Positions 1,534-43,831 of a stretch of 64,000 bases of DNA are shown here, piece by piece. The stretch is taken from the NCBI GenBank assembly GCA_026388015.1, contig JAPLKO010000053.1, positions 7,352 to 71,351 on the forward strand. Direction: 5' to 3'. Under the pieces are notes generated by a model. It worked only from the letters and a program-made list of their open reading frames with translations. It made no database searches and was not told where the DNA came from. Positions within the stretch are counted from its first letter, which is position 1. Each line of letters opens with the position of its first letter. This DNA comes from Candidatus Firestoneibacteriota bacterium (GTDB taxonomy: Bacteria > Oederibacteriota > D2-FULL-39-29). Made by a program: the position numbers and the translations under genes.

Positions 1534-1568
1534 ACGTTATGAACAAAATTTGTATCGGAGAATAGACT

Positions 1569-2827: not shown

Positions 2828-2890
2828 TATTTTTATGAGTGGAATCAGAAAATCTTGTAATCGATGGAATCTATTTAAGGAGGCTGTAAC

Positions 2891-11316: not shown

Positions 11317-11602
11317 GTAAAACAGAATACCACGAACAAAAATATTTATCAAGAAATCTCTTCCACCGCAGGATTTAGAATTGGAGATATAAAAACCCGA
11401 TATTGTACATACCCGGCACTTTTGATGCTATCCTCTAAGCGGCAGAAGTTTATGTCAGAAATTGTGAAAAAGGTAGGACCTTAAATACCGGAGACTCTTA
11501 CTTTTGCCTGCCGCAGAGAAAAGATATAGTGGCATAATTAATATCCTTCTTGTATAATTGATAAGCGACACTGCATATAAATAAAGGGCATCGGATATTA
11601 TA

Positions 11603-12022
11603 ATGAGTGATTTTGGAGTGAGCATAGAAAAAAGAAACGCTCTGGAAGCCCGGATGAGAAAGTACGGTATTAAAGAGGGCGAATTTATTGAGAAGTTTCT
11701 TCGCTCCGGCGGCCCAGGCGGGCAGAATGTAAATAAGGTAGAAACCTGTGTTTACTTGAAACATCTGCCGACGGGTACAGAAGTAAAATGCCAAAAAGAA
11801 AGGTCGCAGGCAAAGAACAGGTATTTTGCAAGGAAGATTCTTGTAAATAAGATTGAAGCAAAACTACTGGGTAAACTTTCAGCGGAATCAAAACTGGCGT
11901 ATAAAATAAAAAAACAAAAAAAGAGAAGAAACAGAAGGGCCAAAGAGAATGTGTTGCGGGAAAAACGGATTAACTCCGGCAGAAAAACATTAAGAGCAAA
12001 AAACATAAATTTATCCGAATAA
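11603..12022 (+). CDS. arfB: Peptidyl-tRNA hydrolase ArfB (alternative ribosome-rescue factor, RF-1 domain protein)
   Basis: [16 protein letters not shown] motif plus a basic C-terminal tail ([12 protein letters not shown]). Length is 139 aa. Confidence 0.8.
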
Positions 12023-12114
12023 ATTATCAACTCGATATTAAGGAAGCAGAAAATAATTATACAGAACAAATACTGTTAACAAAATTATGAAAGAAGGATA
12101 AGCAAATAAGTAAC

Positions 12115-12672
12115 TTGGAAAAAAAACCTATACACATAGAAAACACGGTGTTCGTAGTTATCGACTTTGAGACCACAGGCCTAAGTGTAAAATACGGTGA
12201 TGATATCTGTGAAGTAGCGGCAGTCAGGCTCTTAAACGGAGAGATTACAGACAAATACAGTAAGCTTGTTAACCCCGGTTGTCCCATATCTCCGGGTGCT
12301 TCTGCTGTAAATAATATAACAGATGATATGGTAAAAAGCGCCCCCAGGTTTAAGGAAATATGCGAGGAGTTCCTAAGTTTTATTGGAACCGGGGTTATTG
12401 TGGGTCATCACTTGCCTTTTGATATGAGCTTTTTGAATGCAAAATTGAGTCAGCTTAGAAAGCCGCTGTTAGAAAACGACACTCTGGACACCTTGCGTCT
12501 TGCCAGAAAGACATGGCCCCACCTGCCTTCTTTTAAACTTCCGGACTTAAGACGCCAATTTTCCATAGAAATAAAAGACGAACACAGAGCTCTCGGAGAT
12601 GTAGTTGCTACAGCAGCGCTGCTTTGTAAAATACTTGAAAATTATAAGGAAAAAGGAAAGAAAGAAATATAG
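12115..12672 (+). CDS. DnaQ-like 3'-5' exonuclease (DNA polymerase III epsilon family)
   Basis: Exo I motif VVIDFETTGL and Exo III motif HRALGD. Confidence 0.8.
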   Translation: MEKKPIHIENTVFVVIDFETTGLSVKYGDDICEVAAVRLLNGEITDKYSKLVNPGCPISPGASAVNNITDDMVKSAPRFKEICEEFLSFIGTGVIVGHHLPFDMSFLNAKLSQLRKPLLENDTLDTLRLARKTWPHLPSFKLPDLRRQFSIEIKDEHRALGDVVATAALLCKILENYKEKGKKEI

Positions 12673-12796
12673 AATTTACATTCCCGGCAGGCAGTGCGGC
12701 GCTTTATTTGAAGAGTAATTTCTTCTTTGCGGAGTCTCGAGCTGAGAGCAAGCGCTCCGTGATGCAGCCAAAAAAATCCGAACCCAAAGCGTATTT

Positions 12797-14182
12797 CTAT
12801 CGTAATGTCAGTTTTTTTCCGAAAGTCAGATACTCGACAACTCTTTTTTTTGTTCCCGCTTCCGCATAAACTCTGAGTATGGGTTCCGTGCCTGAAGGAC
12901 GCAGAACCAGCCAGGATAGATCTTCCATCGTATATTTTGCACCGTCTTCACGACTGATACTCTTTACTTTTTTACCAAGAATGGTGGTCGGGTTAAACTT
13001 TTCTATGGTATTGAAAATATAATTCTTTTGTTCCGAGGGATACTTAATATCAAGTCTGTCATAGCAGAAGCTGCCATATTTATTTTCCAGATCTTTTAAT
13101 AATTCACTCGGTTTCTTTGCTGTCTCGGCGATCATCTCGAGGAGCATCAAGCCAAGGAGAATGCCGTCTCGTTCCGGCAAGTAGCCCTTTACGCCGATGC
13201 CGCCGCTTTCTTCCGCACCTATAAGGATATCTTCTTTTAGCATCAGGTCGGCGATATTTTTAAAACCGATAGGCGTGTAAAACCTTCTCAGGCCGTTTCT
13301 CCTGGCAATAACTTCGGCCGCTGAAGTTGTTGCGGTCGTTATGACTACTCCGCCCCGCAAGCCTTTACTTTTAAGAAGATATTCCATAAGCAGAGGCATT
13401 ATATGCTGGGTAGAATAAAATATACCTTTATCATCAATTATTGCAAATCTGTCTCCGTCGCCGTCCGTGACCAGACCGATGGCGGCTTTTTCTTTTTTTA
13501 CCGCGTCTTTTGCGTCTTTCAGTAAAAAATCAAGAGGTTCGGGTTTTATTCCGCCAAACATAGCATCCCGAAAGTGATGGAGAGGAAATAGTTTGAGTCT
13601 TGAATGCTTTAAGACTTCAAGCAGAAGACCCTGGGACGAACCATACATAGGCTCGATAATGACTTTGAAGCTGCTCTTGTTTATCTTCTTCATATCGACG
13701 AAGGTTTTAATAAAAGAAAGATAGGGGGTCGTTAAATCAGACGTTTTGTGCGCCTTTAAGCCTTCTTTAACTTTATTTTTAAAGAGGAAAGCCTCTACGC
13801 CATTAGTCTCTTCCTTTGTAGCGGAAGCCCCATTTGCCGTCTTTATTTTGAAACCACTGTATTCGTAAGGGTTATGAGAGGAGGTAATCATTATCCCAAA
13901 AAAAGCTTTTTTACTTACAACACCATACGAAACCGTCGGCGTCGTAACCGCAGCAGAGGAAAGAATAACTTGAAAACCATTTGAGGCTAGTATATCAGCC
14001 GTTATTGCCGCATATTTTTCTGAGAAAAAACGCAGGTCGTACCCTACGATAGCTTTTCTGTTTTTACCGCACACGGTCTTAAAGTAATCCGCAGTTGCTT
14101 GTGCGACGGCTCTTAAATTTACAAAGGTAAAATCCTTTGCTATTATTCCCCGCCAGCCGTCCGTACCGAATTTTATCTCCAT
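12797..14182 (-). CDS. Alpha-D-phosphohexomutase (phosphoglucomutase/phosphomannomutase family)
   Basis: Active-site serine loop GIMITSSHNPYEYSG. Metal-binding loop DGDGDR. Confidence 0.85.
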   Translation of the reverse strand: MEIKFGTDGWRGIIAKDFTFVNLRAVAQATADYFKTVCGKNRKAIVGYDLRFFSEKYAAITADILASNGFQVILSSAAVTTPTVSYGVVSKKAFFGIMITSSHNPYEYSGFKIKTANGASATKEETNGVEAFLFKNKVKEGLKAHKTSDLTTPYLSFIKTFVDMKKINKSSFKVIIEPMYGSSQGLLLEVLKHSRLKLFPLHHFRDAMFGGIKPEPLDFLLKDAKDAVKKEKAAIGLVTDGDGDRFAIIDDKGIFYSTQHIMPLLMEYLLKSKGLRGGVVITTATTSAAEVIARRNGLRRFYTPIGFKNIADLMLKEDILIGAEESGGIGVKGYLPERDGILLGLMLLEMIAETAKKPSELLKDLENKYGSFCYDRLDIKYPSEQKNYIFNTIEKFNPTTILGKKVKSISREDGAKYTMEDLSWLVLRPSGTEPILRVYAEAGTKKRVVEYLTFGKKLTLR

Positions 14183-14293
14183 AAAAAGCTCCCTGTAGGG
14201 CTAAGACTTCTTTGGCTAATTAAGATAATTTTAACATAAAGACTCCTGCATCTCAATTAGTTTTTCATAGATAATTATGGTAAAATAGGTCTT

Positions 14294-17154: not shown

Positions 17155-17164
17155 GCGCTCATAA

Positions 17165-17180
17165 TGTGAAGATAATCACA
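17165..17180 (+). promoter_or_regulatory. Rex operator 1: TGTGA-AGATAA-TCACA, a perfect palindrome
   Basis: Matches the Rex consensus TTGTGAnnnnnnTCACAA. It lies about 130 nt upstream of the hndA-like gene. Confidence 0.7.
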
Positions 17181-17246
17181 ATATAGCTCTTGTTTTACGC
17201 ATGTATCTGCTATTGCAGTAAACATTTAGTCATAAACAGATTTATA

Positions 17247-17275
17247 TTGACATTAATATAGCAATTTATTATAAT
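17247..17275 (+). promoter_or_regulatory. Consensus sigma70 promoter: TTGACA, 17-nt spacer, TATAAT
   Basis: Perfect hexamers and spacing read directly. The -10 abuts and overlaps Rex operator 2. Confidence 0.75.
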
Positions 17276-17292
17276 TGTGACATAAATCACAA
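17275..17292 (+). promoter_or_regulatory. Rex operator 2: TTGTGA-CATAAA-TCACAA, perfect 18-bp consensus
   Basis: Exact match to the Rex box consensus. It overlaps the -10/+1 region, a classic repressor position. It shares the 13-mer AATCACAATATAG with operator 1. Confidence 0.8.
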
Positions 17293-17308: not shown

Positions 17309-17788
17309 ATGGTAAAAAAAGATAAGCTGCAGGCAGATTTGGAAGGGCTTGTCAAAAAGTGGAAGGACAAGAAAGGCAACCTGATAATGATTCTTCATAG
17401 CATTGAAAACATTTACGGGTATGTTCCTAGGGATACGTCCATAAAATTGTCCAGACTTCTTGATGTGCCTTTGGCAAGAATCTATGAAGTGATTACTTTT
17501 TATAATTATTTTAAGTTAGAGCCTCCCGCAAAACACAATGTTGCCGTTTGTATGGGGACCGCATGCTACCTGAAAAATGCAGCATCGCTAATAGAGGAAA
17601 TCGAAAAGATCCTTCACATTAAAGAAGGTCAAAGCACTAAGGATGGGATGTTTCATCTGGATGTTGTGAGATGCCTTGGCTGCTGCGGCTTGGCTCCCGT
17701 AATGATGATAGACGAAAAAGTCTACGGAAAGGTTAAGAAGAGCGAGATTGTGGATATTTTATCCAAGTACGTGAAGGAAGAGGAATAG
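17309..17788 (+). CDS. hndA: [FeFe]-hydrogenase diaphorase subunit, NuoE-like [2Fe-2S] protein (HndA/HydC-like)
   Basis: CMGTACYLKN...VRCLGCCGLAPV thioredoxin-like [2Fe-2S] motif. Confidence 0.85.
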   Translation: MVKKDKLQADLEGLVKKWKDKKGNLIMILHSIENIYGYVPRDTSIKLSRLLDVPLARIYEVITFYNYFKLEPPAKHNVAVCMGTACYLKNAASLIEEIEKILHIKEGQSTKDGMFHLDVVRCLGCCGLAPVMMIDEKVYGKVKKSEIVDILSKYVKEEE

Positions 17789-17791
17789 TAT

Positions 17792-18136
17792 ATGAAAAAA
17801 ATTACAAAAGAAGATATAGAAAAAGTAGATCCCTCAAAAAAAGATCTGGGTAAAAACTGGATTAAGGTCGGAATGAGTACGTGTGGAGTTGCCGCCGGTG
17901 CAGATGAAGTCTATGCGGCCTTAATTGATGAAGCAAAAAAAAGAAATATTGAGATAGATATTAGAAAATGCGGCTGTCAGGGCGCCTGCTCGGTGGAGCC
18001 GCTGGTGGAAGTGAACGTGGAAGGTCTGCCCAAAGTTCTCTACGGTAGAGTTACCAAAGACGTTGCCGTCACCATTCTTGAGCGCCATGTGAGGAATAAG
18101 AAACTGCTACATGATTATATTTTCGAAATTAATTAG
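17792..18136 (+). CDS. hndB: Small thioredoxin-like [2Fe-2S] ferredoxin subunit (HndB-like)
   Basis: GMSTCGVAAGADEV...CGCQGACSVEP pattern. Length is 114 aa. Confidence 0.75.
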   Translation: MKKITKEDIEKVDPSKKDLGKNWIKVGMSTCGVAAGADEVYAALIDEAKKRNIEIDIRKCGCQGACSVEPLVEVNVEGLPKVLYGRVTKDVAVTILERHVRNKKLLHDYIFEIN

Positions 18137-18151
18137 AAAAGGACGAGAGCT

Positions 18152-19894
18152 ATGGAAAAGAAAATAATATATATAAGAGATACGGACTCCGCCCAGAAGG
18201 AACGCATTAATGACTACTTTACACTCTTCTCAAATGAACTGAGAGACGCAAATCTTCTGGAGCAGGTCCAGCTTGTGAAAGTAGCAGATATCGGCTTGTA
18301 TGAAAAAGGCGTTGCGGTTAAGATTATACCGGAAAACATTGTTTATAGCGGAATAAAAACCACTGATGTTAAAGAAATAGTGGAAGAAACAATTAGGGGT
18401 GGCAAAATAATCAAGGATTTGCTTTGCGGAAAAAAATCAAAACAACTGAGAGCGGTTCTTAAAAACTGCGGGTATATAGACCCGGAAAGCCTGGAAGATT
18501 ATATTGCTGCAGGCGGCTACAAGGCTCTGGTTAAAGTTCTTACGGAGATGAAGCCGGAAGCAGTGGTGGAAGAGCTTAAAAAAAGCGGACTTCGCGGCAG
18601 AGGCGGCGCCGGCTACCCCACCTGGATGAAATGGAATTTTGCCCGGGGAATGAATTCTCCGGAAAAATATGTTATCTGCAACGGCGACGAAGGAGATCCC
18701 GGCGCGTATATGGACAGGAGCGTACTTGAAGGAGATCCTCATTCCGTTTTGGAAGGTATGATAATAGCCGGCTACACCATCGGTTCTACAAAAGGGTACT
18801 TCTATATTAGAGCAGAGTATCCTCTTGCCGTGGAAAGGGTTCAGAAAGCGATAGATCAGGCGACTTCTGCAGGACTTCTGGGCAATAATATTCTGGGGAG
18901 TAACTTTAATTTTGAGCTCGAGATAAGACTGGGAGCGGGCGCCTTTGTCTGCGGTGAAGAAACATCTCTGATTGCTTCAATAGAAGGTAAGCGGGGGACT
19001 CCGCATCCCAGGCCGCCCTATCCTTCGGTTAAGGGTCTTTGGGGAAAACCAACAATCATTAATAATGTAGAGACCCTGGCTAATATACCATTGTTAATTG
19101 CCGGCGGCGGAACAAAATTTGCCTCAGTCGGAACAGAAAAAAGTAAGGGCACAAAAGTATTTGCGCTTACGGGAAAAGTAAAAAACTCGGGTTTGGTTGA
19201 AGTTCCCATGGGTATAACTCTACGTGAGATTGTTTATGACATCGGGGGCGGAATAATTAATAATCGCGACATTAAGGCGATTCAGACCGGCGGTCCCTCC
19301 GGCGGGGTCATTCCTCAGGAGTTTCTGGATACTCCAGTAGACTACGAAAACCTCGGCAAACTCGGCTCCATCATGGGCTCCGGCGGCATGATAGCAATAG
19401 ATGATACCGATTGCTTGGTAGATCTGGCAAAGTTCTATCTTGAATTTTGCGTTGACGAATCCTGCGGTAAGTGCGCGCCCTGCCGTCTCGGAGGCTACCA
19501 GCTTCTTCAAATACTTAAAAAAATATCCGGCGGTAACGGAGAACTTGAAGACTTAAACAGGCTAAAGAAAATTTCCTACGCTATGCAAAAAGCTTCGCTT
19601 TGCGGTTTGGGTCAATCAGCTTCCAATCCGGTATTCTCAACAATAAGATACTTTGAGGAAGAATACAAAAGGCACATTGTTGATAAAAAATGCCCGGCCG
19701 GAAAGTGTAAAGCGCTTATTAGTTTTAAGGTAATTTCTGAAAAGTGCAAGAAGTGCGGGCTTTGTATGAAAAACTGTCCGGCAAATGCTATTACGGGAAG
19801 CCGCGAAGCCGGCTATATTGTTGATTCGCAAAAATGTATCAAATGCGGTGTTTGTTTTGATGTCTGCAAGTTTAAAGCCGTGATGAAGGAGTAG
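18152..19894 (+). CDS. hndC: NuoF-like NAD(P)H-binding FMN/[4Fe-4S] subunit with a C-terminal 2x[4Fe-4S] ferredoxin domain (HndC/HydB-like)
   Basis: [12 protein letters not shown] (FMN/NADH site), a CGKCAPC cluster motif, and C-terminal [12 protein letters not shown]...[11 protein letters not shown]. Confidence 0.9.
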
Positions 19895-19899
19895 GATAA

Positions 19900-21651
19900 A
19901 TGTATAAAATGATAGAAGCTAAAATTAACGGTATCACCGTGGAAGTCAAAGAAGGGACGACAGTCATGGAGGCGGCCAAAAAAGTCCAGATTAAAATACC
20001 GACACTTTGCAAGCACCCGGACCTTCCGCCTTCCGCCGCCTGCGGTCTTTGTATCGTAAAGGTGAAAGGTTCCAATAAAATGCTTCGCGCCTGTTGTACT
20101 CCGCTTGAAGACAAGATGGAGATAACCACAAATGATCCGGATATTGTAGAGGTAAGAAAAACTGTTTTAGAGCTGATAATCTCGAATCATCCTAATGACT
20201 GTTTGAAATGCGGTCGTAACGGTAATTGCGAGCTTCAGAGTATGGCGGCAGATTTTGGTATTCGCGAAGATGTTTTTGGAAAGTTCCTCCGGGATATTCC
20301 TATAGATTCATCAACCGGTACTGTTGTTCTCGAGCCTTCAAAATGCATTCTTTGCGGACGCTGTATAGAAGTCTGTCAGAATATGCAGGATGTTTGGGCT
20401 CTCTCTTTTCTTGAGAGAGGACTTGATACCAGAATTTCCCCGGCCGGAGATATTAAACTTTCTGAATCTCCCTGTGTTAAGTGCGGCCAATGCTCAGCAC
20501 ATTGTCCTACCGGCGCAATATTTGAAAAAGATGATACACAGCTGGTCTGGGATGCGCTTAAGAATCAGGATAAATATTGTGTAATTCAGATAGCTCCCGC
20601 AGTCAGGGTGGCCATAGGCGAGGCGTTTGGTGCTACAGGCAAGAACCTTACAAAAAAGCTTTATGCTCTATTCAGAAGAATGGGATTTAAGGCGGTTTTT
20701 GATACCAACTTCGGTGCTGATGTTACAATTATGGAAGAAGCAAGCGAATTTGTAGAACGCTTTGTTCATAAAAAAAGCGAACTGCCTTTGATTACTTCCT
20801 GCTGTCCGGCGTGGGTTGACTTTATGGAAAAGTTTCATTCCGACATGATAAATCATTTCTCCACCTGCAAATCCCCGCACGAAATTGTTGGTACACTTTC
20901 TAAAACTTATTATGCGGAGAAGGCGGGGGTTGATCCGTCTAAGATTTATATGGCGTCTGTAATGCCCTGCACGGCAAAAAAATATGAGATTACCAGATCC
21001 GATGAGATGTTTGCTTCAGGTTATCAGGATATAGATGTTGCCATTACAACGCGCGAACTTGCGCGCATGATAAAACAGGCGGGAATAGATTTTATGAATC
21101 TGCCTGACGAAGAAGCGGACAGTTTGCTCGGTGATTATACCGGTGCAGGTGTTATCTTCGGCGCGACCGGCGGCGTTATGGAAGCAGCTCTTAGGACGGC
21201 GTACAATCTTGTTACAAAAAAAGAACTGGAAGATGTCAATTTTGTAAACACAAGAGGACTGGAGTTCATAAAGGAAGCAGAAATAGACATAGAAGGGACA
21301 AAAGTCAAGATTGCCGTTGCGCACGGACTTTCACATGTCGAAGAAGTTTTGGAAAGAGTGAGACAGGCAAAGAAGGAAGGAAAAGAAGTTCCTTATCACT
21401 TTATTGAGGTAATGGCTTGCCCCGGCGGTTGTGTCGGCGGCGGCGGTCAGCCCTATAATGTAACGGACAGTCTAAGATTAAAAAGAGCTTCTGCAATCTA
21501 CCAGGATGATAAAGAAAAAACAGTGCGCTGTTCGCATAATAATGTATATGTAAAAAAACTGTATAAAGATTTCCTGGGAAAACCACTCGGGGAGAAATCT
21601 CATAAGCTTTGTCACACCGAGTATAAGGCAAGACCGATTTACGTAAGATAA
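19900..21651 (+). CDS. hndD: [FeFe]-hydrogenase catalytic subunit, group A bifurcating/NAD(P)-linked type (HndD/HydA-like)
   Basis: H-cluster motifs TSCCPAWV, MPCTAKKYE and EVMACPGGCVGGGGQP. N-terminal [2Fe-2S] and [4Fe-4S] ferredoxin domains. Confidence 0.92.
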   Translation: MYKMIEAKINGITVEVKEGTTVMEAAKKVQIKIPTLCKHPDLPPSAACGLCIVKVKGSNKMLRACCTPLEDKMEITTNDPDIVEVRKTVLELIISNHPNDCLKCGRNGNCELQSMAADFGIREDVFGKFLRDIPIDSSTGTVVLEPSKCILCGRCIEVCQNMQDVWALSFLERGLDTRISPAGDIKLSESPCVKCGQCSAHCPTGAIFEKDDTQLVWDALKNQDKYCVIQIAPAVRVAIGEAFGATGKNLTKKLYALFRRMGFKAVFDTNFGADVTIMEEASEFVERFVHKKSELPLITSCCPAWVDFMEKFHSDMINHFSTCKSPHEIVGTLSKTYYAEKAGVDPSKIYMASVMPCTAKKYEITRSDEMFASGYQDIDVAITTRELARMIKQAGIDFMNLPDEEADSLLGDYTGAGVIFGATGGVMEAALRTAYNLVTKKELEDVNFVNTRGLEFIKEAEIDIEGTKVKIAVAHGLSHVEEVLERVRQAKKEGKEVPYHFIEVMACPGGCVGGGGQPYNVTDSLRLKRASAIYQDDKEKTVRCSHNNVYVKKLYKDFLGKPLGEKSHKLCHTEYKARPIYVR

Positions 21652-21655
21652 TAAA

Positions 21656-21704
21656 AAGGGCAAATTTATCGTGAATAATAGTGCACATAATTTGCCCTTT
21701 TTTG
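21656..21704 (+). terminator. Rho-independent terminator: 11-bp stem AAGGGCAAATT/AATTTGCCCTT with a large loop, then TTTTTTG
   Basis: Read directly after the hndD stop. Confidence 0.65.
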
Positions 21705-21871
21705 TTTATAGTGATAGAGTGACTATATATTGTGATACGACGCGCGCAACCATATAGTAAGTATTATTCTGTAATGCTTATTTTGGTTTGACAAATGCAG
21801 ATAAAACACCAAAAATACAATAATATTGACAGGTAAAAACAAATCCTATATAATGTGAAAGGTGGTACAAT

Positions 21872-22522
21872 ATGTCGGAATCTAAGAATTGTATATTAAG
21901 GCTTTGCAGATACAGACGGACCTTGAAAGATCTTAAAGAACTGGGATATGTGAAGATCTTTTCGGATAATCTCGGAGAAGCAACCGGTGTTACCGCCGCC
22001 CAGGTAAGGAAGGATTTTTCGCTCTTCGGTATTTCCGGAAATAAAAAGGGCGGCTATCTGATTGATAACCTTATCGAGAAGATAAATTCAATACTCGGCA
22101 AAGATGAAGTGCAGAAAGTTATCATGGTGGGTGCCGGAAATCTTGGCAGCGCTCTTGCCCGGTACCGAGGTTTTGAAAAAGAGGATATTGATATAGTTGC
22201 CGCGTTTGATGCCGATCCGGCCAAACAGGGTAAAATAAACAATATTCAGGTTTATCCGATAAAGGATGTTTTTGAATATGTCAGAAACAACAAGGTGCGA
22301 GTGGCTGTTCTTGCGGTTCCTGCAACAGTGGCTCAGGAAGTAAGCGAGATCCTTGTGTCCGCGGGAATAAAAGGAATTCTAAATTTTGCGCCGGTTACTT
22401 TGCGGGTGCCGGAAAGGATGGTAATAAATAACGTCAGTCTGGCTATAGAGCTGGAGAACGTTATCTACTATGTTAATGCTAGAGCGCGCGGCGAAAAACA
22501 AAAAAACGAGATTAACCCTTAA
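21872..22522 (+). CDS. rex: Redox-sensing transcriptional repressor Rex
   Basis: N-terminal winged helix (RLCRYRRTLKDLKELGYVKIFSDNLGEATGVTAAQVRKD) and a Rossmann fold VIMVGAGNLGSAL. A TTGACA-17-TATAAT promoter sits at about 21827-21855. Confidence 0.9.
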   Translation: MSESKNCILRLCRYRRTLKDLKELGYVKIFSDNLGEATGVTAAQVRKDFSLFGISGNKKGGYLIDNLIEKINSILGKDEVQKVIMVGAGNLGSALARYRGFEKEDIDIVAAFDADPAKQGKINNIQVYPIKDVFEYVRNNKVRVAVLAVPATVAQEVSEILVSAGIKGILNFAPVTLRVPERMVINNVSLAIELENVIYYVNARARGEKQKNEINP

Positions 22523-22642
22523 ACACCAAGACTCCCGTCTCTCTTTTTATTTTGTAAACATTCGCAGGTTTTCCTTCGGCAATTTCCTTTCAAATAAAAT
22601 AACTGTCAAATCAGATTTCATATTTTCAAAAGGAGCGTTACT

Positions 22643-25600
22643 ATGAACAGTCCGCTTGAAAAAGTAAAGGTACTGAAACAAAAAGCAATAAAGAGCAACA
22701 TTCCTAAATGGAACGCCGATATTCGGTTTAGTATTGGTATGTCCACCTGCGAAATAGCCGCAGGTTCAAAAAAAGTTTTAGCCGCCCTGCAGGAAGAGAT
22801 AAAGAAGAGAAAGCTTAAGGGTGTGTGTATAACGGAAAAAGGCTGCGCAGGCAGGTGTCATGTTGAACCTACGCTAGAAGTATTTGTTCCGGGAAGAAAA
22901 CCCGCAGAGTTTGAGAATGTCGATGAAAAGAAAGTAAAAAGGATTCTAGCGGAGTATGCTTACAAAAAAGTAAAGAGAAACAATAAAGTACTTCCTGCGC
23001 CTGCGGATTTTGGACATGAGTTTCTGACCGATCGTTCCGCCTATATTTTTGGAGATCTGGTAGAGTTCTCAAAACAAAAAAGAATGGCGCTAAGAAATTG
23101 CGGAGCGATAGATCCGGAATCAATCGATGATTATCTTTGTGTAAGAGGTTATGAAGCACTTGGAAAGGTGCTGACGGCTTACAAACCGGAGATGGTTGTA
23201 GAAGATATTATAAAATCAGGGCTCCGGGGTCGAGGGGGTGGGGGCTTTAAGACCGGCACAAAATGGGGCTTTGTTGCCGCACAGAATAATACTGTAAAAT
23301 ATGTTATCTGTAACGCCGACGAGGGTGATCCGGGCGCATTTATGGACCGGAGTATGATAGAGGGAGATCCGTTTAGCTTGTTAGAGGCTATGGCCATAGG
23401 CGGGTATGCGGTCGGGTCCAATGCGGGAATAGTTTATATACGCGCGGAATATCCTTTGGCAGTAAAGAGATTAAAAATTGCTATTGAAATCGCTAAGAAA
23501 AAGAACCTTCTCGGGAAAAATATTCTTGGAAGTGATTTTACCTTTGACGTAGATATCGTGCTTGGGGCAGGCGCTTTTGTTTGCGGTGAGGAAACAGCTC
23601 TTATCAATTCTATAGAAGGAAAGCGCGGAATGCCTATAACGAGACCGCCCTATCCTTCTGTAAAAGGTCTCTGGGGCCGTCCGACGCTTATTAACAATGT
23701 AGAAACCTGGGCAAATATTCCGTTAATCATACTTGACGGATGGGAATTTTTCTCTTCTGTCGGCACGGATAAATCGAGAGGAACCAAAGTATTTGCGCTT
23801 GCCGGAAAGATTAAGAACACCGGACTCGTGGAAGTTCCTATGGGTACGACTCTCGGAGAGGTTATCTTTGATATCGGCGGGGGCACTAAAACTGACGCAA
23901 AATTCAAAGCTGCGCAGACCGGCGGGCCTTCGGGAGGTTGTCTTCCCACCCAGTTTCTTAACACTCCTATAGATTATGATTCTCTTATCTCAGCAGGCTC
24001 TATTATGGGTTCCGGCGGACTTATTATTATGGATGAAAAAGATTGCATGGTGGATGTTGCAAAGTTCTTCCTGGAGTTTACCCAAGATGAGTCCTGCGGT
24101 AAGTGTACACCCTGCAGAGAAGGAACCAAAAGAATGCTCGAGATACTCGAAAGGATCACCGGCGGAAAAGGCGAAGAAGGCGATATAGAAAAACTTGAAA
24201 GACTCGGGAACAGCATAAAAAAAACTGCTTTATGCGGACTGGGGCAGACAGCGCCGAATCCGGTGCTTTCCACGATTAAATATTTTAGAAATGAGTATGA
24301 ATCCCACATAAGGGACAGAAAATGTAAATCCGCAGTTTGCGGCGAACTCTTTGTGTCGCCCTGTCAGCATACCTGTCCGGTAAACATAGATATTCCCGGC
24401 TTCATAGGAAATATCAGAGAAGACAGATTGAAGGACAGTATTGAATTGATCCTAAAAAGAAATCCTTTGCCTTCTGTTTGCGGCCGGGTTTGTCATCATC
24501 CGTGCGAAACAAACTGCAGAAGAGGGAAGATGGAAGAGCCTATCTCCATTATGATGTTGAAAAGATTTGCAGCGGATTACACTGCCGGAGATAAAGGTAT
24601 TGCGATAGAAAAATATAAGGGTAAAACCTTGAAGGCTTCCGTTGCAATAATCGGAAGCGGTCCGGCGGGTCTTTCTGCGGCGTATCACCTGGCAAAAAGA
24701 GGTTATCAGGTTACAGTTTATGAATCTGAAAAAGTAGCCGGCGGCATGCTTACTTTGGGTATTCCGGAGTACAGGTTGCCCAAAGATATAGTAGACCGGG
24801 ATATTAAACGTCTCATAAGCGCTGGTGTAAAAATAAAAACCGGCGTGCATTTTGGAAAGGATATATCTCTGAAAGATCTAAAGGATAAAGGCTTCCAGGC
24901 CGTCTTCCTTGCCATCGGTGCCTGGAAAGAAGTACCGCTTAAAATTCACGGTACGGATCTCTTTGGATTTATGGGTTCTCTTTCTTTCCTTAAAAACTAC
25001 AACACCGAAAAGATTGTGAAGATTAAAGGTGTCTACTCCATAGTAATAGACGAAGAACATAATATGCCGGTAACGGGCCAAAGGGTCGCAGTCATCGGAG
25101 GCGGAAATGCCGCTATGGATGTGGCGAGAACTTGTCTCCGTCTCGGTGCTTCCGAAGTTCATGTTGTATATAGAAGAGACCGCGCGGATATGCCAGCAAT
25201 TCCCGAGGAAGTTCACGAGTGTGAAAAAGAGGGCGCAAAACTGCATTTCCTTCTGATACCTAATAATATTAAAGGCAAATTCGGTAAGATTCAGGAGCTT
25301 GAATGCCTTCATACAAAACCGGGAGAGTTCGATGCTACCGGAAGAAGAAAACCGGTTCCTACGGAAGAGAAATTTGTTCTGCCCGTGGATATTATCATAA
25401 GCGCCATCGGCGGCAAACCCAACTGCGCCGAGCTTTCCAAGGATAAACTTATTATGACGGATTGGGATACGGTCTCTGTTGATAAAAGGACTCTGGCTAC
25501 GAATATCCCGTGGGTTTTTGCCGGAGGGGACGTTGTTACCGGAGGCGGTACGGTTATAGAGTCTGTGGCAGACGGTGAAAAGGCGGCAATTTCCATCGAT

Positions 25601-25849
25601 AGGTACCTTCAGGGAAAAAGAGGCGATGAACTTTTCAGAGACCGTTTTGTGGTTAAAGGGGAAAGAAAAGTCGTTTCGTATATTGATCCTGCAAAAGAAG
25701 TAAAAGAAAAAGCGAGAATAAAGCATGCTAAGCTCACTATGGAAAAACGTTTGCAGGCTTTCACAGAAGTAGAACTCGGCTATACAAAGAGCCAGGCTAT
25801 GGAAGAGTGTGACCGCTGCTTACGCTGCGATAAAAAGGAGGTTGAATAA
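22643..25849 (+). CDS. 1068-aa three-module fusion: HndB-like [2Fe-2S] domain, then NuoF-like FMN/NAD(H) module, then GltD/NfnB-like FAD/NAD(P)H module
   Basis: N-terminus GMSTCEIAAGSKKV. Middle GLRGRGGGGFKTG plus CGKCTPC. C-terminus has a GltD Fe-S region (CQHTCPVNIDIP...CHHPCETNC) and two dinucleotide folds (AIIGSGPAGLSAAY and VAVIGGGNAAMDVA). Confidence 0.85.
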   Translation: MNSPLEKVKVLKQKAIKSNIPKWNADIRFSIGMSTCEIAAGSKKVLAALQEEIKKRKLKGVCITEKGCAGRCHVEPTLEVFVPGRKPAEFENVDEKKVKRILAEYAYKKVKRNNKVLPAPADFGHEFLTDRSAYIFGDLVEFSKQKRMALRNCGAIDPESIDDYLCVRGYEALGKVLTAYKPEMVVEDIIKSGLRGRGGGGFKTGTKWGFVAAQNNTVKYVICNADEGDPGAFMDRSMIEGDPFSLLEAMAIGGYAVGSNAGIVYIRAEYPLAVKRLKIAIEIAKKKNLLGKNILGSDFTFDVDIVLGAGAFVCGEETALINSIEGKRGMPITRPPYPSVKGLWGRPTLINNVETWANIPLIILDGWEFFSSVGTDKSRGTKVFALAGKIKNTGLVEVPMGTTLGEVIFDIGGGTKTDAKFKAAQTGGPSGGCLPTQFLNTPIDYDSLISAGSIMGSGGLIIMDEKDCMVDVAKFFLEFTQDESCGKCTPCREGTKRMLEILERITGGKGEEGDIEKLERLGNSIKKTALCGLGQTAPNPVLSTIKYFRNEYESHIRDRKCKSAVCGELFVSPCQHTCPVNIDIPGFIGNIREDRLKDSIELILKRNPLPSVCGRVCHHPCETNCRRGKMEEPISIMMLKRFAADYTAGDKGIAIEKYKGKTLKASVAIIGSGPAGLSAAYHLAKRGYQVTVYESEKVAGGMLTLGIPEYRLPKDIVDRDIKRLISAGVKIKTGVHFGKDISLKDLKDKGFQAVFLAIGAWKEVPLKIHGTDLFGFMGSLSFLKNYNTEKIVKIKGVYSIVIDEEHNMPVTGQRVAVIGGGNAAMDVARTCLRLGASEVHVVYRRDRADMPAIPEEVHECEKEGAKLHFLLIPNNIKGKFGKIQELECLHTKPGEFDATGRRKPVPTEEKFVLPVDIIISAIGGKPNCAELSKDKLIMTDWDTVSVDKRTLATNIPWVFAGGDVVTGGGTVIESVADGEKAAISIDRYLQGKRGDELFRDRFVVKGERKVVSYIDPAKEVKEKARIKHAKLTMEKRLQAFTEVELGYTKSQAMEECDRCLRCDKKEVE

Positions 25850-25850
25850 C

Positions 25851-27638
25851 ATGGAAAAGAAAATGATTAACCTCATAATTGACGGAATAGCGGTTAAAGT
25901 ATCTGAAGATTCAACGGTTATGCAGGCTGCGGATTCGGTCGGTATTCATATTCCGAGACTTTGTTACCATCCGAGACTTTCAAGTGTCGGCGCCTGCCGG
26001 GTGTGCGTTGTTGAAGTAGACGGCGCAAAAAACTTTCCGGCATCCTGTGTTACCGCGGTATTTGAAGGGATGAAAGTAAAAACAAATACTCCCGCCATAA
26101 GGGAAGCAAGAAGGGATGTTGTTGAGTTAATCTTGGATAATCATCCGAAGGAATGTCAAATCTGCGAGCGGAACAACAATTGCGAACTGCAGCAGCTCGC
26201 AACCACCCTCGGGGTGGAGGATTATTTTTACGCCGGCGAAAGAAAACAGTTCCCGATAGACAGCTCTTCTTGTTCTATCGTGAGAGACCCTGATAAGTGT
26301 ATCCTTTGCGGAAAATGCGTAAGGGTTTGTTCCGAGATTCAGGGCGTCAATGCGCTTTCCATATCTGCGAGAGGCTATAAAACCAATGTAGGTCCCGCTT
26401 ATAATATGGATATGAAAGACAGCGTTTGCATTAACTGCGGACAGTGTACGCTGGTTTGTCCCACCGCAGCGCTTACGGAAAAAGACGGCATTAAGGAAAC
26501 GTTTAAAAATCTGAGTAATCCGGATAAAGTATGTATAGTTCAGATTGCCCCGGCGGTAAGAGTTGCAGTCGGCGAGGCGTTTGGTTTTGCTCCCGGTACG
26601 GATAAAACATACGAGATGGTGACAGCTCTCAGAATGATGGGTTTTAAAGTTGTTTTCGACACCCAGTTCTCGGCGGACCTTACCATAATAGAAGAAGGTC
26701 ACGAGTTCATAAAAAGACTTACAACAGGCGGAAAACTTCCGATGTTCACCTCCTGTTCTCCGGGGTGGATCAAGTATCTGGAAACGTTCCATCCTGAGTT
26801 TATTGAAAATGTGTCTACCTGCAAATCACCGCAACAGATGATGGGTGCGTTAATAAAGACTTTCTATGCAAAAAAAGTCGGAATTGATCCCGCAAAGATT
26901 TTCTCTGTTTCCATAATGCCTTGCACGGCAAAAAAATATGAGTGTGCAAGGCCGGAGATGAATTCGAGCGGCTTTAGAGATGTTGACGTAGTGCTCACGA
27001 CCAGAGAACTTGCGAAGATGATAAAACAAGCCGGAATAAAATTCACGGAATTGAAGAAGGGTGAGTTCGATGAACCCCTGGGTGAATCAACGGGTGCTGC
27101 TCCTATCTTTGGCGTTACCGGCGGAGTAATGGAAGCGGCCCTGCGTACTGCGTATGAAGTTATAACAAAAAAAGAGCTCCCTTCTATTGATTTTAAAGAT
27201 GTCAGAGGCTTAAACGGCATCAGGGAAGCGATAGTGGATGTGGCCGGCACTAAAGTAAGCGTTGCCGTGGTAAACGGTCTGGCGAATGTGCACAAGCTCC
27301 TGACGGAAATAAAAGAAGGAAAACGTAAATATCACTTTGTGGAAGTTATGACTTGCCCCGGAGGTTGTATCGGCGGCGGCGGGCAGATCTATCCTCAGGG
27401 AGATATTGAAGCGATGGATAAAAATCTTTACACTCAGCGGTCCGACGGGCTTTATGATATTGATGAAAAGAAAAAGCTCCGAAAGTCTCACGAGAATCCG
27501 CATATAACGGCTGTCTATAAAGAATTTTTACAGAAACCGCTTGGAGAGCTTTCACACAAATTACTTCATACGCATTATCACAAGGCCTGCCCGAAAGGCG
27601 TGCCGTCGGAAGTCAGAGATACCGTGAGCATCGGTTAA
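25851..27638 (+). CDS. Second [FeFe]-hydrogenase catalytic subunit, paralog of hndD. The start is at the internal ATG 25851; the ORF track starts at 25809, overlapping the upstream gene.
   Basis: H-cluster motifs TSCSPGWIKY, MPCTAKKYE and EVMTCPGGCIGGGGQ. A GGAGG RBS lies before 25851. Confidence 0.9.
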   Translation: MEKKMINLIIDGIAVKVSEDSTVMQAADSVGIHIPRLCYHPRLSSVGACRVCVVEVDGAKNFPASCVTAVFEGMKVKTNTPAIREARRDVVELILDNHPKECQICERNNNCELQQLATTLGVEDYFYAGERKQFPIDSSSCSIVRDPDKCILCGKCVRVCSEIQGVNALSISARGYKTNVGPAYNMDMKDSVCINCGQCTLVCPTAALTEKDGIKETFKNLSNPDKVCIVQIAPAVRVAVGEAFGFAPGTDKTYEMVTALRMMGFKVVFDTQFSADLTIIEEGHEFIKRLTTGGKLPMFTSCSPGWIKYLETFHPEFIENVSTCKSPQQMMGALIKTFYAKKVGIDPAKIFSVSIMPCTAKKYECARPEMNSSGFRDVDVVLTTRELAKMIKQAGIKFTELKKGEFDEPLGESTGAAPIFGVTGGVMEAALRTAYEVITKKELPSIDFKDVRGLNGIREAIVDVAGTKVSVAVVNGLANVHKLLTEIKEGKRKYHFVEVMTCPGGCIGGGGQIYPQGDIEAMDKNLYTQRSDGLYDIDEKKKLRKSHENPHITAVYKEFLQKPLGELSHKLLHTHYHKACPKGVPSEVRDTVSIG

Positions 27639-27653
27639 AGGAGGAAATAAAAA

Positions 27654-28184
27654 ATGAATACGTGTACCTGCGCTCCTGAATTAAAAGAAAAAGAAAAACA
27701 AGACGGTTTAAAAGAATTAAAAGATTTTATAAAAACCGGTAAACAGCTCCACGATAAACAGGGTGCGTTAATGAACGTGCTCCATAAGGTTCAGGAGATA
27801 TTCGGCTACATACCGAGAGAAGCTATGGATGTGGTCTCGGAAGAACTCTGTGTCCCTACAGCTCATATTTATGGGATGGCGACGTTCTATAACTTCTTCT
27901 CGCTTAAACCCAAAGCCAAGTACCAGATTTATGTCTGTAAAGGTACAGCCTGCTATGTGGCCGGGGGAGCCAGGCTTCTGGAACGTATCGAAGACGAGCT
28001 TAAGATAAAGCTTGGCGATGTTACTCCCGATGGGCTATTTGGCCTTGCTATTACAAGGTGTCTCGGCTGCTGCGGTCTTTCTCCCGTAGTTCAGGTAAAT
28101 GATGAAGTGTTTGTAAGACTTGTTCCGGAAAAGATCCCCGGTATTCTGGATAAGTTCAGAAAAATGGAAAAGAAAACGAAATAG
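27654..28184 (+). CDS. NuoE-like [2Fe-2S] subunit of the second hydrogenase complex
   Basis: CKGTACYVAGG...TRCLGCCGLSPV. Confidence 0.85.
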   Translation: MNTCTCAPELKEKEKQDGLKELKDFIKTGKQLHDKQGALMNVLHKVQEIFGYIPREAMDVVSEELCVPTAHIYGMATFYNFFSLKPKAKYQIYVCKGTACYVAGGARLLERIEDELKIKLGDVTPDGLFGLAITRCLGCCGLSPVVQVNDEVFVRLVPEKIPGILDKFRKMEKKTK

Positions 28185-28208
28185 GGCGGTAGGGTAAATG
28201 TTATTCCA

Positions 28209-28238
28209 GGGGCCGGCAAAAAACCGGCCCTTCTTTTT
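28209..28238 (+). terminator. Rho-independent terminator: GGGGCCGG-CAAAAAA-CCGGCCC then TTCTTTTT
   Basis: GC-rich hairpin plus U-run read directly after the operon. Confidence 0.8.
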
Positions 28239-28303: not shown

Positions 28304-29080
28304 TTGAAAAACCGTTTGATAAGCATATATAATATAGTAATGAAGATGAATTTATCTGTAACCGAGAAAAAAATATACAAAAGGCAGATAATGCTTTTTG
28401 GAGAGAAAGGGCAGAAAAACCTTAAAAAATCAACTGTTTTTATAGTTGGTGCCGGAGGCCTTGGAAGCGCTGCTGCTTTTTACCTTGCCGGGGGCGGAGT
28501 CGGGAGAATCATAATTGTTGACTCCGATAAAGTGGAGCTTTCAAATCTCAACCGGCAGATACTGCATGGATTTAGAAGGGTAGGAAAAAACAAAGCGCTC
28601 TCGGCGCAAACTACACTTCGAGCCTTAAACGGTAATATTAAAATTGAGTCTGTCACAGAAAGAATAACGGCTGCAAATATTGATAAATACGCAGGCAAGG
28701 CGGATCTCCTTCTTGATTGTCTGGATAATTTTGAGACGAGGTTTGTACTTAACGAATACGCATTTAAAAATAAAAAGCCTCTTATTTTTGGAGCCATCTT
28801 CGGGTATTTTGGTCAAATTGCCTTTATAAGACCCGGAAAAAGTTTTTGTCTGGCTTGTCTCTTTGAAGGTTCACCGGCAAAAGGAGTTTTTCCGGTAGTA
28901 GGCGCAACCCCAGGTGTTATCGGTTCGCTTCAAGCTATGGAAGCGATAAAATATCTTTCGGGTGCCGGCAGTAATCTGAACAGCGAGCTTTTGACGTGGA
29001 ACGGGTTGAAGCAGGAGTTCCGTAAGGTAAAATTTAAAAGAAATTCACACTGCAAAGTATGCAGGAAGGAAAAAAAATGA
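28304..29080 (+). CDS. ThiF/MoeB/HesA-family E1-like adenylyltransferase. The true start is possibly the Met at about 28340-28346.
   Basis: Nucleotide-binding loop VFIVGAGGLGSAAAFYLAGGGVGRIIIVD. C-terminal CLAC...CKVC zinc motif. Confidence 0.8.
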   Translation: MKNRLISIYNIVMKMNLSVTEKKIYKRQIMLFGEKGQKNLKKSTVFIVGAGGLGSAAAFYLAGGGVGRIIIVDSDKVELSNLNRQILHGFRRVGKNKALSAQTTLRALNGNIKIESVTERITAANIDKYAGKADLLLDCLDNFETRFVLNEYAFKNKKPLIFGAIFGYFGQIAFIRPGKSFCLACLFEGSPAKGVFPVVGATPGVIGSLQAMEAIKYLSGAGSNLNSELLTWNGLKQEFRKVKFKRNSHCKVCRKEKK

Positions 29081-30444
29081 GTTTTATAGATGAAGCAAGG
29101 ATACTTAAGGTCCTCGAAAAAACCAAAGAACCTGATGTTAAGCTGGCTGAAAGTGTTATTAACAAAGCCAAAGAAAGAAAAGGCCTGAATCTCGAAGAGG
29201 TCGGAGTGCTTATAAATCTTAAGGACCCGCGCCTTCTTAAAGAGATGTTCGACACAGCTGCTAAAATTAAAGAGGAGATCTACGGCGAACGGCTTGTTTT
29301 TTTCGCGCCGCTTTACGTTTCTGATTTTTGCGTGAACGACTGCGCCTACTGTAATTTTCATCAGACGAACAAATCTCTAAAGCGGAGCAAGCTTACGCTT
29401 GAACAGGTGAGAGAGCAGGTTAAAATACTTATCAACATGGGGCATAAGAGAGTGCTTCTTGAGTTCGGCGAAGATCAAAAAGAAAACCCTATCGATTATG
29501 TTGTTGATGTGATAAATGAGATCTATAAAGTGAAAACGGAAAAAGGAAGCATCCGCAGGGTTAATGTAAATATTGCCGCAACGACCGTGGAAAACTACAA
29601 AAAAATAAAAGCGACGAACATCGGGACGTATCAACTGTTTCAGGAAACGTACCACCGCCCTACATATGAAAAACTGCATAAAGGTCCTAAAGGTGATTAT
29701 GACAGACAGCTTACAGCCCAGGATAGAGCGCTTGAAGCGGGGATTGATGACAGAGGCCTCGGAGTTCTCTTCGGACTTTATGATTGGAAGTTTGAAGTGC
29801 TCGGGCTTATTGCCCATGCGGAGCATCTTGATAAAGTCGGCGGTGTCGGGCCGCATACCATATCCGTACCAAGGCTCTGTGAAGCGCCTACGGTAAAATA
29901 CATTCCGGAGCACCCTGTATCAGATGAAGATTTTTTAAAGATAATTGCCATACTTCGTCTTGCTGTCCCGTACACCGGTATGATAATATCGACCCGAGAA
30001 ACTCCCGAGATTAGAAGAAAAGCTTTTAAGATCGGTATCTCCCAGACTTCCGCAGCTTCGGTAACTTCTACCGGCGGTTATGGAAAGAAGATGGATTCCG
30101 TACAATTCACTTCGCATGATCCGAGAAGTCTTGAAGAAGTGATCAAGGATGCACTGAAAGACAAGCTTTTACCGTCCTTTTGCACCGCCTGCTACCGTTT
30201 GGGCAGGACGGGAGAGGATTTTATGTATCTTTCCAAACCCGGAGAAATCCATAAGTTCTGCCGCACGAACGGTCTCCTGACTTTTGCGGAGTACCTTGAA
30301 GATTTTGCTTCGGAAGAGTTGAAAAAAGAAGGTTATAATGTTATCAGGTACTACATGGATAAAATTGACGAACCGGAACTTCTTCAAAGAGCAAAAGAAG
30401 GATTAGCAAATATCAGACAAGGGAAAAGAGATATTTATTACTAG
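29059..30444 (+). CDS. hydG: [FeFe]-hydrogenase maturase HydG (radical SAM tyrosine lyase). The start is likely the Met at 29077.
   Basis: Radical SAM CVNDCAYC near the N-terminus, plus the HydG-specific C-terminal auxiliary cluster motif CTAC-x22-C (Cx2Cx22C). The 461-aa length is too long for ThiH. Confidence 0.8.
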   Translation: MQEGKKMSFIDEARILKVLEKTKEPDVKLAESVINKAKERKGLNLEEVGVLINLKDPRLLKEMFDTAAKIKEEIYGERLVFFAPLYVSDFCVNDCAYCNFHQTNKSLKRSKLTLEQVREQVKILINMGHKRVLLEFGEDQKENPIDYVVDVINEIYKVKTEKGSIRRVNVNIAATTVENYKKIKATNIGTYQLFQETYHRPTYEKLHKGPKGDYDRQLTAQDRALEAGIDDRGLGVLFGLYDWKFEVLGLIAHAEHLDKVGGVGPHTISVPRLCEAPTVKYIPEHPVSDEDFLKIIAILRLAVPYTGMIISTRETPEIRRKAFKIGISQTSAASVTSTGGYGKKMDSVQFTSHDPRSLEEVIKDALKDKLLPSFCTACYRLGRTGEDFMYLSKPGEIHKFCRTNGLLTFAEYLEDFASEELKKEGYNVIRYYMDKIDEPELLQRAKEGLANIRQGKRDIYY

Positions 30445-41702: not shown

Positions 41703-41714
41703 GAGAAGAGTTTA

Positions 41715-43723: not shown

Positions 43724-43831
43724 GCAGTTAATAAAAAATAGTATATAATATATCTGTTATCATAGAAAAAGCCTTGTTGTAATTTAAGCAATTGTGAAAT
43801 ATTTCTAAATAGATTATTAGGGAGGTGTTTA

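Follow-up and report, generated by a model that had tools for sequence, protein, structure and literature searches.

Organization of the locus

We analysed a stretch of 64,000 nucleotides (nt; hereafter the window) of contig JAPLKO010000053.1 from a Candidatus Firestoneibacteriota bacterium, in which two [FeFe]-hydrogenase operons lie on either side of rex, a gene for a redox-sensing repressor. An earlier examination of the letters and their translations (the sequence-only reading) had described the operons as paralogous and the second as encoding a 1068-amino-acid (aa) fusion of diaphorase and GltD-like modules. An open reading frame (ORF) check found all eight genes intact at the coordinates given below, in the same orientation and with no internal stops, and their domain content, determined with Pfam and NCBIfam, agreed with that description. 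Positions refer to the window, and the eight genes lie on the plus strand.

Operon 1 comprises four genes: hydC1/hndA (17309..17788), for a NuoE-like [2Fe-2S] subunit of 159 aa (PF01257, 6.8e-46; Cys 81, 86, 122 and 126); an hndB-like gene (17792..18136), for a small thioredoxin-like protein of 114 aa (PF01257, 27.5 bits) with 39% identity to residues 29-117 of the fusion; hydB1/hndC (18152..19894), for a NuoF-like flavin mononucleotide (FMN)/NAD(H) subunit of 580 aa with Complex1_51K and NADH_4Fe-4S domains and two Fer4 motifs at 526-577; and hydA1/hndD (19900..21651), for an [FeFe] hydrogenase catalytic subunit of 583 aa. The repressor gene rex follows (21872..22522; 216 aa; NF003996, 232.5 bits against a cut-off of 138). 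Downstream of it lies operon 2, hydB2-hydA2-hydC2. The fusion is encoded in a single frame by hydB2 (22643..25849) and contains Complex1_51K, SLBB, NADH_4Fe-4S, Fer4_20 and Pyr_redox_2; hydA2 (25851..27638) encodes a catalytic subunit of 595 aa, a start backed by gene calls in two relatives (L003 and L087); and hydC2 (27654..28184) encodes a NuoE-like [2Fe-2S] subunit of 176 aa (PF01257, 3.2e-47; Cys 95, 100, 136 and 140).

In a relative with 89% identity, three independent metagenome contigs carry pabB, operon 1, rex, operon 2, thiF and hydG in an identical layout. In a Candidatus Firestonebacteria metagenome-assembled genome (MAG; L087, 77% identity) the order is pabB, rex, a histidine kinase gene, a fusion-type B'-A-C operon, two response regulator genes, hydF, hydE, thiF and hydG. 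The additional genes fall within positions 6142-17016 of L087, where a Cache/HAMP histidine kinase lies between rex and hydB2 and the response regulators, hydF and hydE follow hydC2; the window is without these extras. A histidine kinase also precedes the fusion gene in L005. Operon 1 is absent from L087, so that what stays constant in this lineage is rex plus the fusion-type operon, whereas operon 1 varies. The paralogy of the two group-A operons was borne out by their domains and by 46-59% identity between paralogues. A recent tandem duplication was considered and rejected, since the paralogues are no more similar than this and each is equally close or closer to enzymes from other phyla. Judged by these identities, the operons around rex are old, deep paralogues.

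Operon 1 is predicted to encode a canonical bifurcating hydrogenase

We examined operon 1 for a complete BfuBC core (B1, Zn site, B3/B4 and C1) and found every part. HydB1 contains the B1 cluster ligands C438, C441, C444 and C484, a Zn-site set of three cysteines and one histidine (C421, H508, C514 and C519) and, at its C-terminus, two classical CxxCxxCxxxCP motifs whose eight cysteines at 532-572 constitute the B3/B4 ferredoxin-like domain; the four HydC1 cysteines listed above correspond to the C1 cluster. The N-terminus of HydB1 has no Cys motif, so it is apparently the separate HndB-like protein that provides this enzyme with a B5 domain. The hndA-B-C-D gene order is presumably that of HndABCD in Desulfovibrio fructosovorans and HydABCD in Caldanaerobacter, the comparison being one of gene order. 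In the Bfu literature, a complete BfuBC core is diagnostic of NAD/ferredoxin bifurcation, and a 2022 review takes an invariant BfuBC core containing six Fe-S clusters as the defining feature of the family (PMC9304861). By its ligand sets, operon 1 is classified as a canonical NAD(H)/ferredoxin electron-bifurcating enzyme of the Bfu/HydABC type. The earlier description of an hndA-B-C-D-like, NAD(P)-linked enzyme is upheld by this complete NAD/ferredoxin-type core, whereas its description as trimeric is not, the operon having four genes.

The fusion subunit HydB2 is genuine and widespread

A search of a 5.8-billion-protein collection returned more than 120 full-length HydB2 homologues of 1000-1100 aa, with 48-98% identity. 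Full-length fusions were also found in at least 55 genomes from many phyla in a scan of one-genome-per-species contigs, which is a sample rather than a census. These taxa include Omnitrophota, Armatimonadota, Halanaerobiales, Desulfobacterales, Anaerolineae, Dehalococcoidia, Bacteroidales, Verrucomicrobiota, Spirochaetes, Acidobacteriota and Planctomycetota, together with two archaea. When the fusion junction was used as a 161-aa query, most of the 150 best 50%-identity cluster representatives covered it in one unbroken match. That the ORF might be a mis-joined assembly, a refutation that the sequence-only reading had itself named, or a decaying pseudogene is next to impossible: the frame has no internal stops, all cofactor ligands are invariant, the same fusion recurs on many independent contigs, among them the three of the close relative, and the junction is matched continuously. 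Some cluster representatives are only ~650 aa long (P0180, P0182, P0188, P0202 and P0226) and have the junction at residues ~90-240; the NCBIfam model PRK12771 ("NAD(P)-binding protein") likewise spans it, matching fusion residues 525-1062.

In ~20 fetched loci, a B'-A-C or C-B'-A module adjoins a true HydA. Other neighbours occur as well. In a deltaproteobacterial MAG (L025, 7464-15792), the gene for the same fusion lies upstream of a formate dehydrogenase alpha gene split into two ORFs (11520-12590 and 12603-14219), with what is presumably an in-frame selenocysteine codon at the break; a formate transporter gene comes next. Since the fusion adjoins formate dehydrogenase here, the cassette-bearing subunit probably serves non-hydrogenase partners too. 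In a promethearchaeotal MAG (Loki_b31; L047, 5722-14782), the fusion lies between glutamate dehydrogenase genes; its neighbours encode a small 2Fe-2S protein and a protein with a Glu_synthase domain, and the locus has no hydrogenase.

A permuted FAD/NADPH cassette occupies the place of the B3/B4 domain

Residue conservation in HydB2 was assessed in an alignment of 24 homologues (49-89% identity), to which "invariant" refers throughout, and by comparison with solved chains. Residues ~26-108, the part resembling the HndB-like protein of operon 1, adopt a thioredoxin-like fold and keep three of the four canonical cysteines (C36, C68 and C72); in this clade Ala takes the place of the second CxxxxC cysteine, and Firmicute relatives have all four. 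This N-terminal domain belongs to normal HydB, and there is thus nothing unusual about the protein as a "triple" fusion. The domains of the HndB-NuoF-GltD fusion proposed earlier are indeed present, and Complex1_51K, NADH_4Fe-4S, Fer4_20 and Pyr_redox_2, the Pfam domains suggested as a check, were all found; but the thioredoxin-like part is standard for HydB, and the GltD part is permuted relative to GltD/NfnB. Residues ~150-556 constitute a standard HydB/NuoF core whose best PDB match is A. woodii HydB (1e-203). The B1 ligands (C485, C488, C491 and C531) and the Zn (B2) site (C468 and, in the linker, H555, C561 and C566) are invariant, and the Cys-to-His spacing of 87 residues equals that of T. 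sibiricus NfnB, where the Zn (B2) site is formed by C437, H524, C529 and C534.

The GltD-like part begins 6 residues past C566, where HydB1 has its two Fer4 motifs. Pfam detected no Fer4 dicluster (B3/B4 ferredoxin-like) domain in HydB2, in which NADH_4Fe-4S ends at 555 and Fer4_20 starts at 566. The NfnL/GltD-like cassette (residues 572-1063; 24356..25831, plus strand) comprises two [4Fe-4S] sites, a flavin adenine dinucleotide (FAD) site, an NADPH site and a C-terminal RCLRC tail. By these alignments, the ferredoxin-like B3/B4 domain of canonical HydB is replaced, at exactly that place, by an FAD/NADPH cassette.

The cassette is collinear with residues 102-567 of NfnA (9bov_A; E = 7.7e-105), and also with 9n5u_A and 8oh5_C, through RCLRCD. 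Against T. maritima NfnB (4ylf_B) it aligns in two pieces, the body with residues 45-462 and the last 32 residues of HydB2 (EKRLQAFTEVELGYTKSQAMEECDRCLRCD) with N-terminal residues 12-43. Because its tail corresponds to the NfnB N-terminus and its body to the rest, we read the cassette as circularly permuted in the manner of NfnABC/Stn, with RCLxC after the FAD/NADPH domains. The Cys ligands C574, C578, C613, C617, C621, C625, C1059 and C1062 are invariant. So is K640, which aligns with Lys-170 of Csac NfnA, an unusual ligand of the FAD-adjacent cluster that is the first acceptor of FAD electrons; T. maritima NfnB has Glu there. K640 is accordingly aligned, and predicted, to be the non-Cys ligand of the first cluster after FAD, as in NfnA/StnC. 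The FAD motif GxGxxG (GSGPAG, 671-676) and an NADPH-type signature consisting of GGGNAA (819-824) and YRR (843-845) are invariant as well, YRR providing the Arg pair of the signature. Our reading of GxGxxA as an NADPH-type second dinucleotide motif follows Kremp 2020.

An AlphaFold model of the single HydB2 chain, built on the alignment, was confident, with a mean predicted local distance difference test score (pLDDT) of 80 and a predicted template-modelling score (pTM) of 0.75. In Foldseek searches, BfuB-type chains matched its N-terminal half and NfnA/NfnL chains its C-terminal half, whereas no solved chain in the PDB spanned both (query TM-score at most 0.48).

Homology of the cassette to NfnL/NfnB (E ~1e-94) invites the view that operon 2 encodes a four-substrate enzyme, a hydrogenase joined to an Nfn-type transhydrogenase, in which ferredoxin would dock on the distal cassette cluster and the FAD would form a second, Nfn-like bifurcating centre. 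The NfnL/NfnB FAD does bifurcate, and its two [4Fe-4S] clusters lead to ferredoxin; the possibility was raised by the authors of PMC11406978 and coincides with the view of the sequence-only reading. We consider it improbable. The cassette is of the permuted NfnA/StnC type with Lys instead of Glu at the non-Cys ligand position; in NfnABC the FAD is where NADPH enters and the electron path starts, bifurcation taking place at B1-FMN-C1; and Pfam identified no NfnS-like [2Fe-2S]/FAD partner in operon 2. The proposed involvement of ferredoxin in an Nfn-like arrangement is thereby weakened, since the cassette takes the place of the B3/B4 ferredoxin domain and K640 that of the NfnL/NfnB Glu. By analogy, the Lys-type cassette argues for an NfnA-like entry/exit flavin over a second bifurcating flavin, although it is not proof.

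The catalytic and HydC subunits resemble those of bifurcating enzymes

Hydrogenase subgroups were judged by NCBIfam model and nearest PDB relatives. HydA1 and HydA2 both pass the "group A6, NADH-dependent" model (NF040763, 791.8 and 877.5 bits, that is 792 and 878 against a cut-off of 765), and for both the best solved relatives are HydA chains of bifurcating HydABC, T. kivui 8a6t_A and A. woodii 7q4v_A. The subgroup comparison proposed earlier as a way of telling the enzymes apart therefore places the two catalytic subunits together, and the predicted difference lies in HydB, not HydA. HydA2 contains Fer2_4, NADH-G_4Fe-4S_3, Fer4 and Fe_hyd_lg_C domains, and the three H-cluster motifs are complete in both proteins, in HydA2 as TSCSPGW, MPCTAKKYE and EVMTCPGGCIGGG. 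The L1 motif reads TSCSPGW in HydA2 (26748-26768) and TSCCPAW in HydA1 (20794-20814); variation in this motif was also noted in PMC11406978. We considered whether TSCSPGW marks an active-site defect and rejected this, as the Ser variant is the commoner form among the fetched A3-type genes and is present in the active A. woodii HydA1 (7q4v_A). HydC2 differs from HydC1 by an N-terminal extension of ~25 residues (27654-27740) that begins MNTCTCAPELKEK and contains two cysteines (C4 and C6).

Relation to known systems

The architecture of operon 2 is already in the literature, and the locus is a further example. A sequence-based study of Hydrogenedentota genomes (mSystems 2024, PMC11406978) described a "sub-type I" BfuB in which a DPD_II and an FAD/NAD(P) domain take the place of B3/B4, reported relatives in several phyla, called the "BAC" gene orientation previously unreported and stated that biochemical data are nonexistent. 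Operon 2 shares with these group A3 BfuABC enzymes the C-terminal DPD_II (2x[4Fe-4S], Fer4_20) and FAD/NAD(P) domains of a NuoF-like BfuB, with HydA and HydC encoded alongside. It differs in having the order B-A-C with rex directly upstream, no separate BfuD/HndB gene and an N-terminal B5 domain in HydB2 with three of four cysteines. The HydABC enzymes of A. woodii, T. kivui and T. maritima (7q4v, 8a6t and 7p5h) have the nearest HydA chains and the same Zn, B1 and C1 ligands; operon 1 fits that family fully, whereas HydB2 has the FAD/NADPH cassette and no B3/B4.

The closest counterparts of the cassette are in NfnABC/StnABC (9bov, 9n5u and 8oh5), which combine the same permuted, Lys-ligand cassette with terminal RCLxC and the same BfuBC-type core. 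There, however, it is subunit A, devoid of an H-cluster, that bears the cassette, and B3/B4 is still present in subunit B for ferredoxin; in operon 2 the cassette forms the C-terminal part of subunit B, and subunit A is a genuine hydrogenase. NfnSL/NfnAB (5jca and 4ylf) and the GltD small subunit share the fold with two [4Fe-4S] clusters, FAD and NADPH at ~41-43% identity over ~430 columns, but in them the first ~45 residues, including a CxxC pair, are N-terminal, whereas the HydB2 equivalent is C-terminal; NfnSL/NfnAB also have Glu in place of Lys and an NfnS partner, which operon 2 is without. An archaeal [FeFe]/[NiFe] hybrid described in silico (Cell 2024, PMC11216029) likewise includes a diaphorase of HydB type that bears a glutamate-synthase-type domain, for which the glutamate synthase small chain served as the model. 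It differs in its archaeal origin and NiFe module, and its authors link the extra domain to ferredoxin rather than to NADP.

What the present analysis adds is the apparent identity of the cassette as the permuted, Lys-bearing NfnA/StnC type placed right after the Zn site, the probable co-transcription of the fusion operon with rex while the canonical paralogue carries candidate Rex operators, and the likely partnership of the same fused subunit with a selenocysteine formate dehydrogenase (L025) and a glutamate-synthase-like gene set (L047).

Proposed electron path of the second enzyme

Recent structures place the bifurcation site of Bfu enzymes at B1-FMN-C1, where C1 swings from FMN to B3/B4; ferredoxin docks against the B3/B4 domain in the solved enzymes, and HydB proteins without B3/B4 do not use ferredoxin. 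Operon 2 has an H-cluster HydA, the FMN/NAD(H) site with B1, the Zn site and HydC with C1, and it thus retains these parts of the bifurcating core. By the definition in PMC9304861, operon 2 is nevertheless not placed as a canonical Bfu member, because HydB2 is without the B3/B4 ferredoxin-like domain and the invariant six-cluster core is therefore incomplete.

From the anatomy, conservation and regulatory layout observed here, we infer that the products of operon 2 assemble and that HydA2-B2-C2 most likely couples H2 with NAD(H) at the FMN and with NADP(H) at the FAD. We give this reading, its anatomical part included, a probability of about 0.5. H2 would be oxidised or produced at HydA2, electrons would pass via B1-FMN-C1, and the branch that normally leads through B3/B4 to ferredoxin would run via the two cassette clusters to FAD and NADP(H), because HydB2 is kept up to the Zn linker and B3/B4 is swapped for a cassette with an NADPH signature. 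The low-potential branch would then end at NADP(H), which may replace ferredoxin or act alongside it. It had been proposed that the second enzyme uses NADP and the first NAD; the signature GGGNAA/YRR favours the NADP part, but the FMN/NAD(H) site of HydB2 is intact, which does not fit a use of NADP instead of NAD.

With the physiological potentials given in PMC9304861 (NAD -280 mV, NADP -380 mV and H2 -414 mV), H2 at ~1 bar could reduce both nucleotides, and by our own Nernst estimate NADH and NADPH jointly could evolve H2 below ~100-150 Pa. The closeness of these potentials also bears on an alternative in which nothing is coupled: B3/B4 has been lost, the enzyme is non-bifurcating, as in S. 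wolfei and S. aciditrophicus, and the cassette is a second, independent entry or exit for NADPH. At a suitable H2 pressure, coupling is not needed thermodynamically, and HydB proteins without B3/B4 are non-bifurcating and ferredoxin-independent. Yet strong conservation marks the retained Zn site, the C1 ligands of HydC and three B5 cysteines out of four, whereas the non-bifurcating homologues are without the B2-B5 sites (PMC9304861). We judge this dual-specificity hydrogenase unlikely, and slightly more so than the four-substrate enzyme.

Several points weigh against the coupling of H2 to both nucleotides. We found no enzymology of a NuoF-GltD hydrogenase type in the open-access literature. 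Docking of ferredoxin on the cassette is conceivable by analogy with NfnSL, whose homologous FAD bifurcates and whose two clusters pass electrons on to that carrier. The FMN-site motif DEGDPGA[FY]MDR is identical in both HydB paralogues, which does not by itself prove NAD specificity, and the single-chain AlphaFold model speaks to the fold rather than to the electron-transfer distance between cassette and C1. Regulation by Rex, finally, is deduced from predicted sites.

A more specific version of the coupled enzyme, which we put forward tentatively and at clearly less than even odds, is a ferredoxin-independent bifurcating/confurcating hydrogenase with NADP(H) as its low-potential partner and the cassette as a portable "NADP plug". 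The reaction would be 2 H2 + NAD+ + NADP+ <-> NADH + NADPH + 2 H+, and the same permuted cassette would plug into formate dehydrogenases and other partners in many phyla.

Regulatory layout

The operon 1 promoter is a perfect TTGACA-17-TATAAT (17247..17275, plus strand; 12/12 match), and two Rex-type boxes flank it on both sides. Predicted Rex box 1, ATGTGAAGATAATCACAA, lies upstream (17164..17181, plus strand; 2 mismatches to TTGTGAANNNNTTCACAA), and predicted Rex box 2, TTGTGACATAAATCACAA, abuts the -10 hexamer (17275..17292, plus strand; 2 mismatches). Both boxes and the promoter are kept in the 89% relative (L003), where the DNA between them has diverged. Window-wide, the Rex operator pattern TTGTGAAnnnnTTCACAA has 6 matches, against 4.7 expected by chance; because this count is no higher than chance, position and conservation are what support these candidate sites. 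Through the two promoter boxes Rex would repress operon 1, which would be switched on when NADH accumulates. An intrinsic terminator read from the sequence, GGGCAAATT...AATTTGCCC followed by T6 (21658..21703, plus strand), ends operon 1; its stem is maintained by compensatory changes in L003, and its long loop caused a consensus scan to skip it.

The rex gene has its own perfect TTGACA-17-TATAAT promoter (21826..21854, plus strand; 12/12 match), which L003 retains and of which L087 has a similar version. No Rex box with three or fewer mismatches is present from the end of operon 1 to operon 2; the sequence-only reading had seen no strong one between rex and operon 2. The sole candidate at the rex promoter has 4 mismatches and is conserved in three species, but it overlaps the ribosome-binding site and is indistinguishable from it. 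The 17 nt past the rex -10 hexamer (GTGAAAGGTGGTACAAT, 21853-21871), a stretch that takes in the ribosome-binding site and looks like a degenerate Rex half-site, are identical in L003 and differ by one base in L087; autoregulation of rex is possible. The 120-bp gap between rex and hydB2 contains no promoter-like site, terminator or Rex box and is unconserved except for a ribosome-binding site. Because these elements are absent, rex and operon 2 look like one co-transcribed unit, as previously suggested. The terminator after operon 2 (28208..28232, plus strand; a 9-bp stem, 7 of whose pairs are GC, followed by a T tail) is the top-scoring site of the region.

Neighbouring genes

Downstream of operon 2, a ThiF/MoeB-like adenylyltransferase gene (28304-29080) overlaps the start of hydG, a position kept in L002-L004 and L087. 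The H-cluster maturase gene hydG (29059..30444, plus strand; TIGR03955, 551 bits against a cut-off of 312) has the same neighbours in those loci. Profile matches of the window's proteins revealed no hydE or hydF within the window. Selenocysteine machinery is encoded at 40125-47247, with selD (40125-41702), selA (43832-45316) and selB (45307-47247). Two ORFs separate selD from selA, one for a double-cubane-cluster reductase (41715-42947) and one of 258 aa (42947-43723), and in the 525-aa selD product the SelD model match is limited to residues 59-365. At 463-4714, the cobalamin lower-ligand/salvage genes cobT, cobU and cobS precede the gene for a TonB-dependent receptor related to B12 receptors (212 bits, under the curated cut-off of 600), which suggests a diderm cell envelope.

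Implications

With the architecture known computationally since 2024, the interest of operon 2 lies in its testable prediction rather than in its discovery. The locus is a handy test case, since canonical and cassette-bearing enzymes are adjacent in one genome under different regulatory logic, and the coupling inferred here, if correct, would test the view of B3/B4 as a mere ferredoxin exit of the Bfu core. It would also mean that a widespread enzyme type ties H2 to both pyridine-nucleotide pools without ferredoxin. In that case H2 could keep a highly reduced NADPH pool charged and, in reverse, NADPH could drive the release of H2 from NADH at low H2 pressure, so that redox balance and NADPH supply would be modelled differently in many uncultivated anaerobes.

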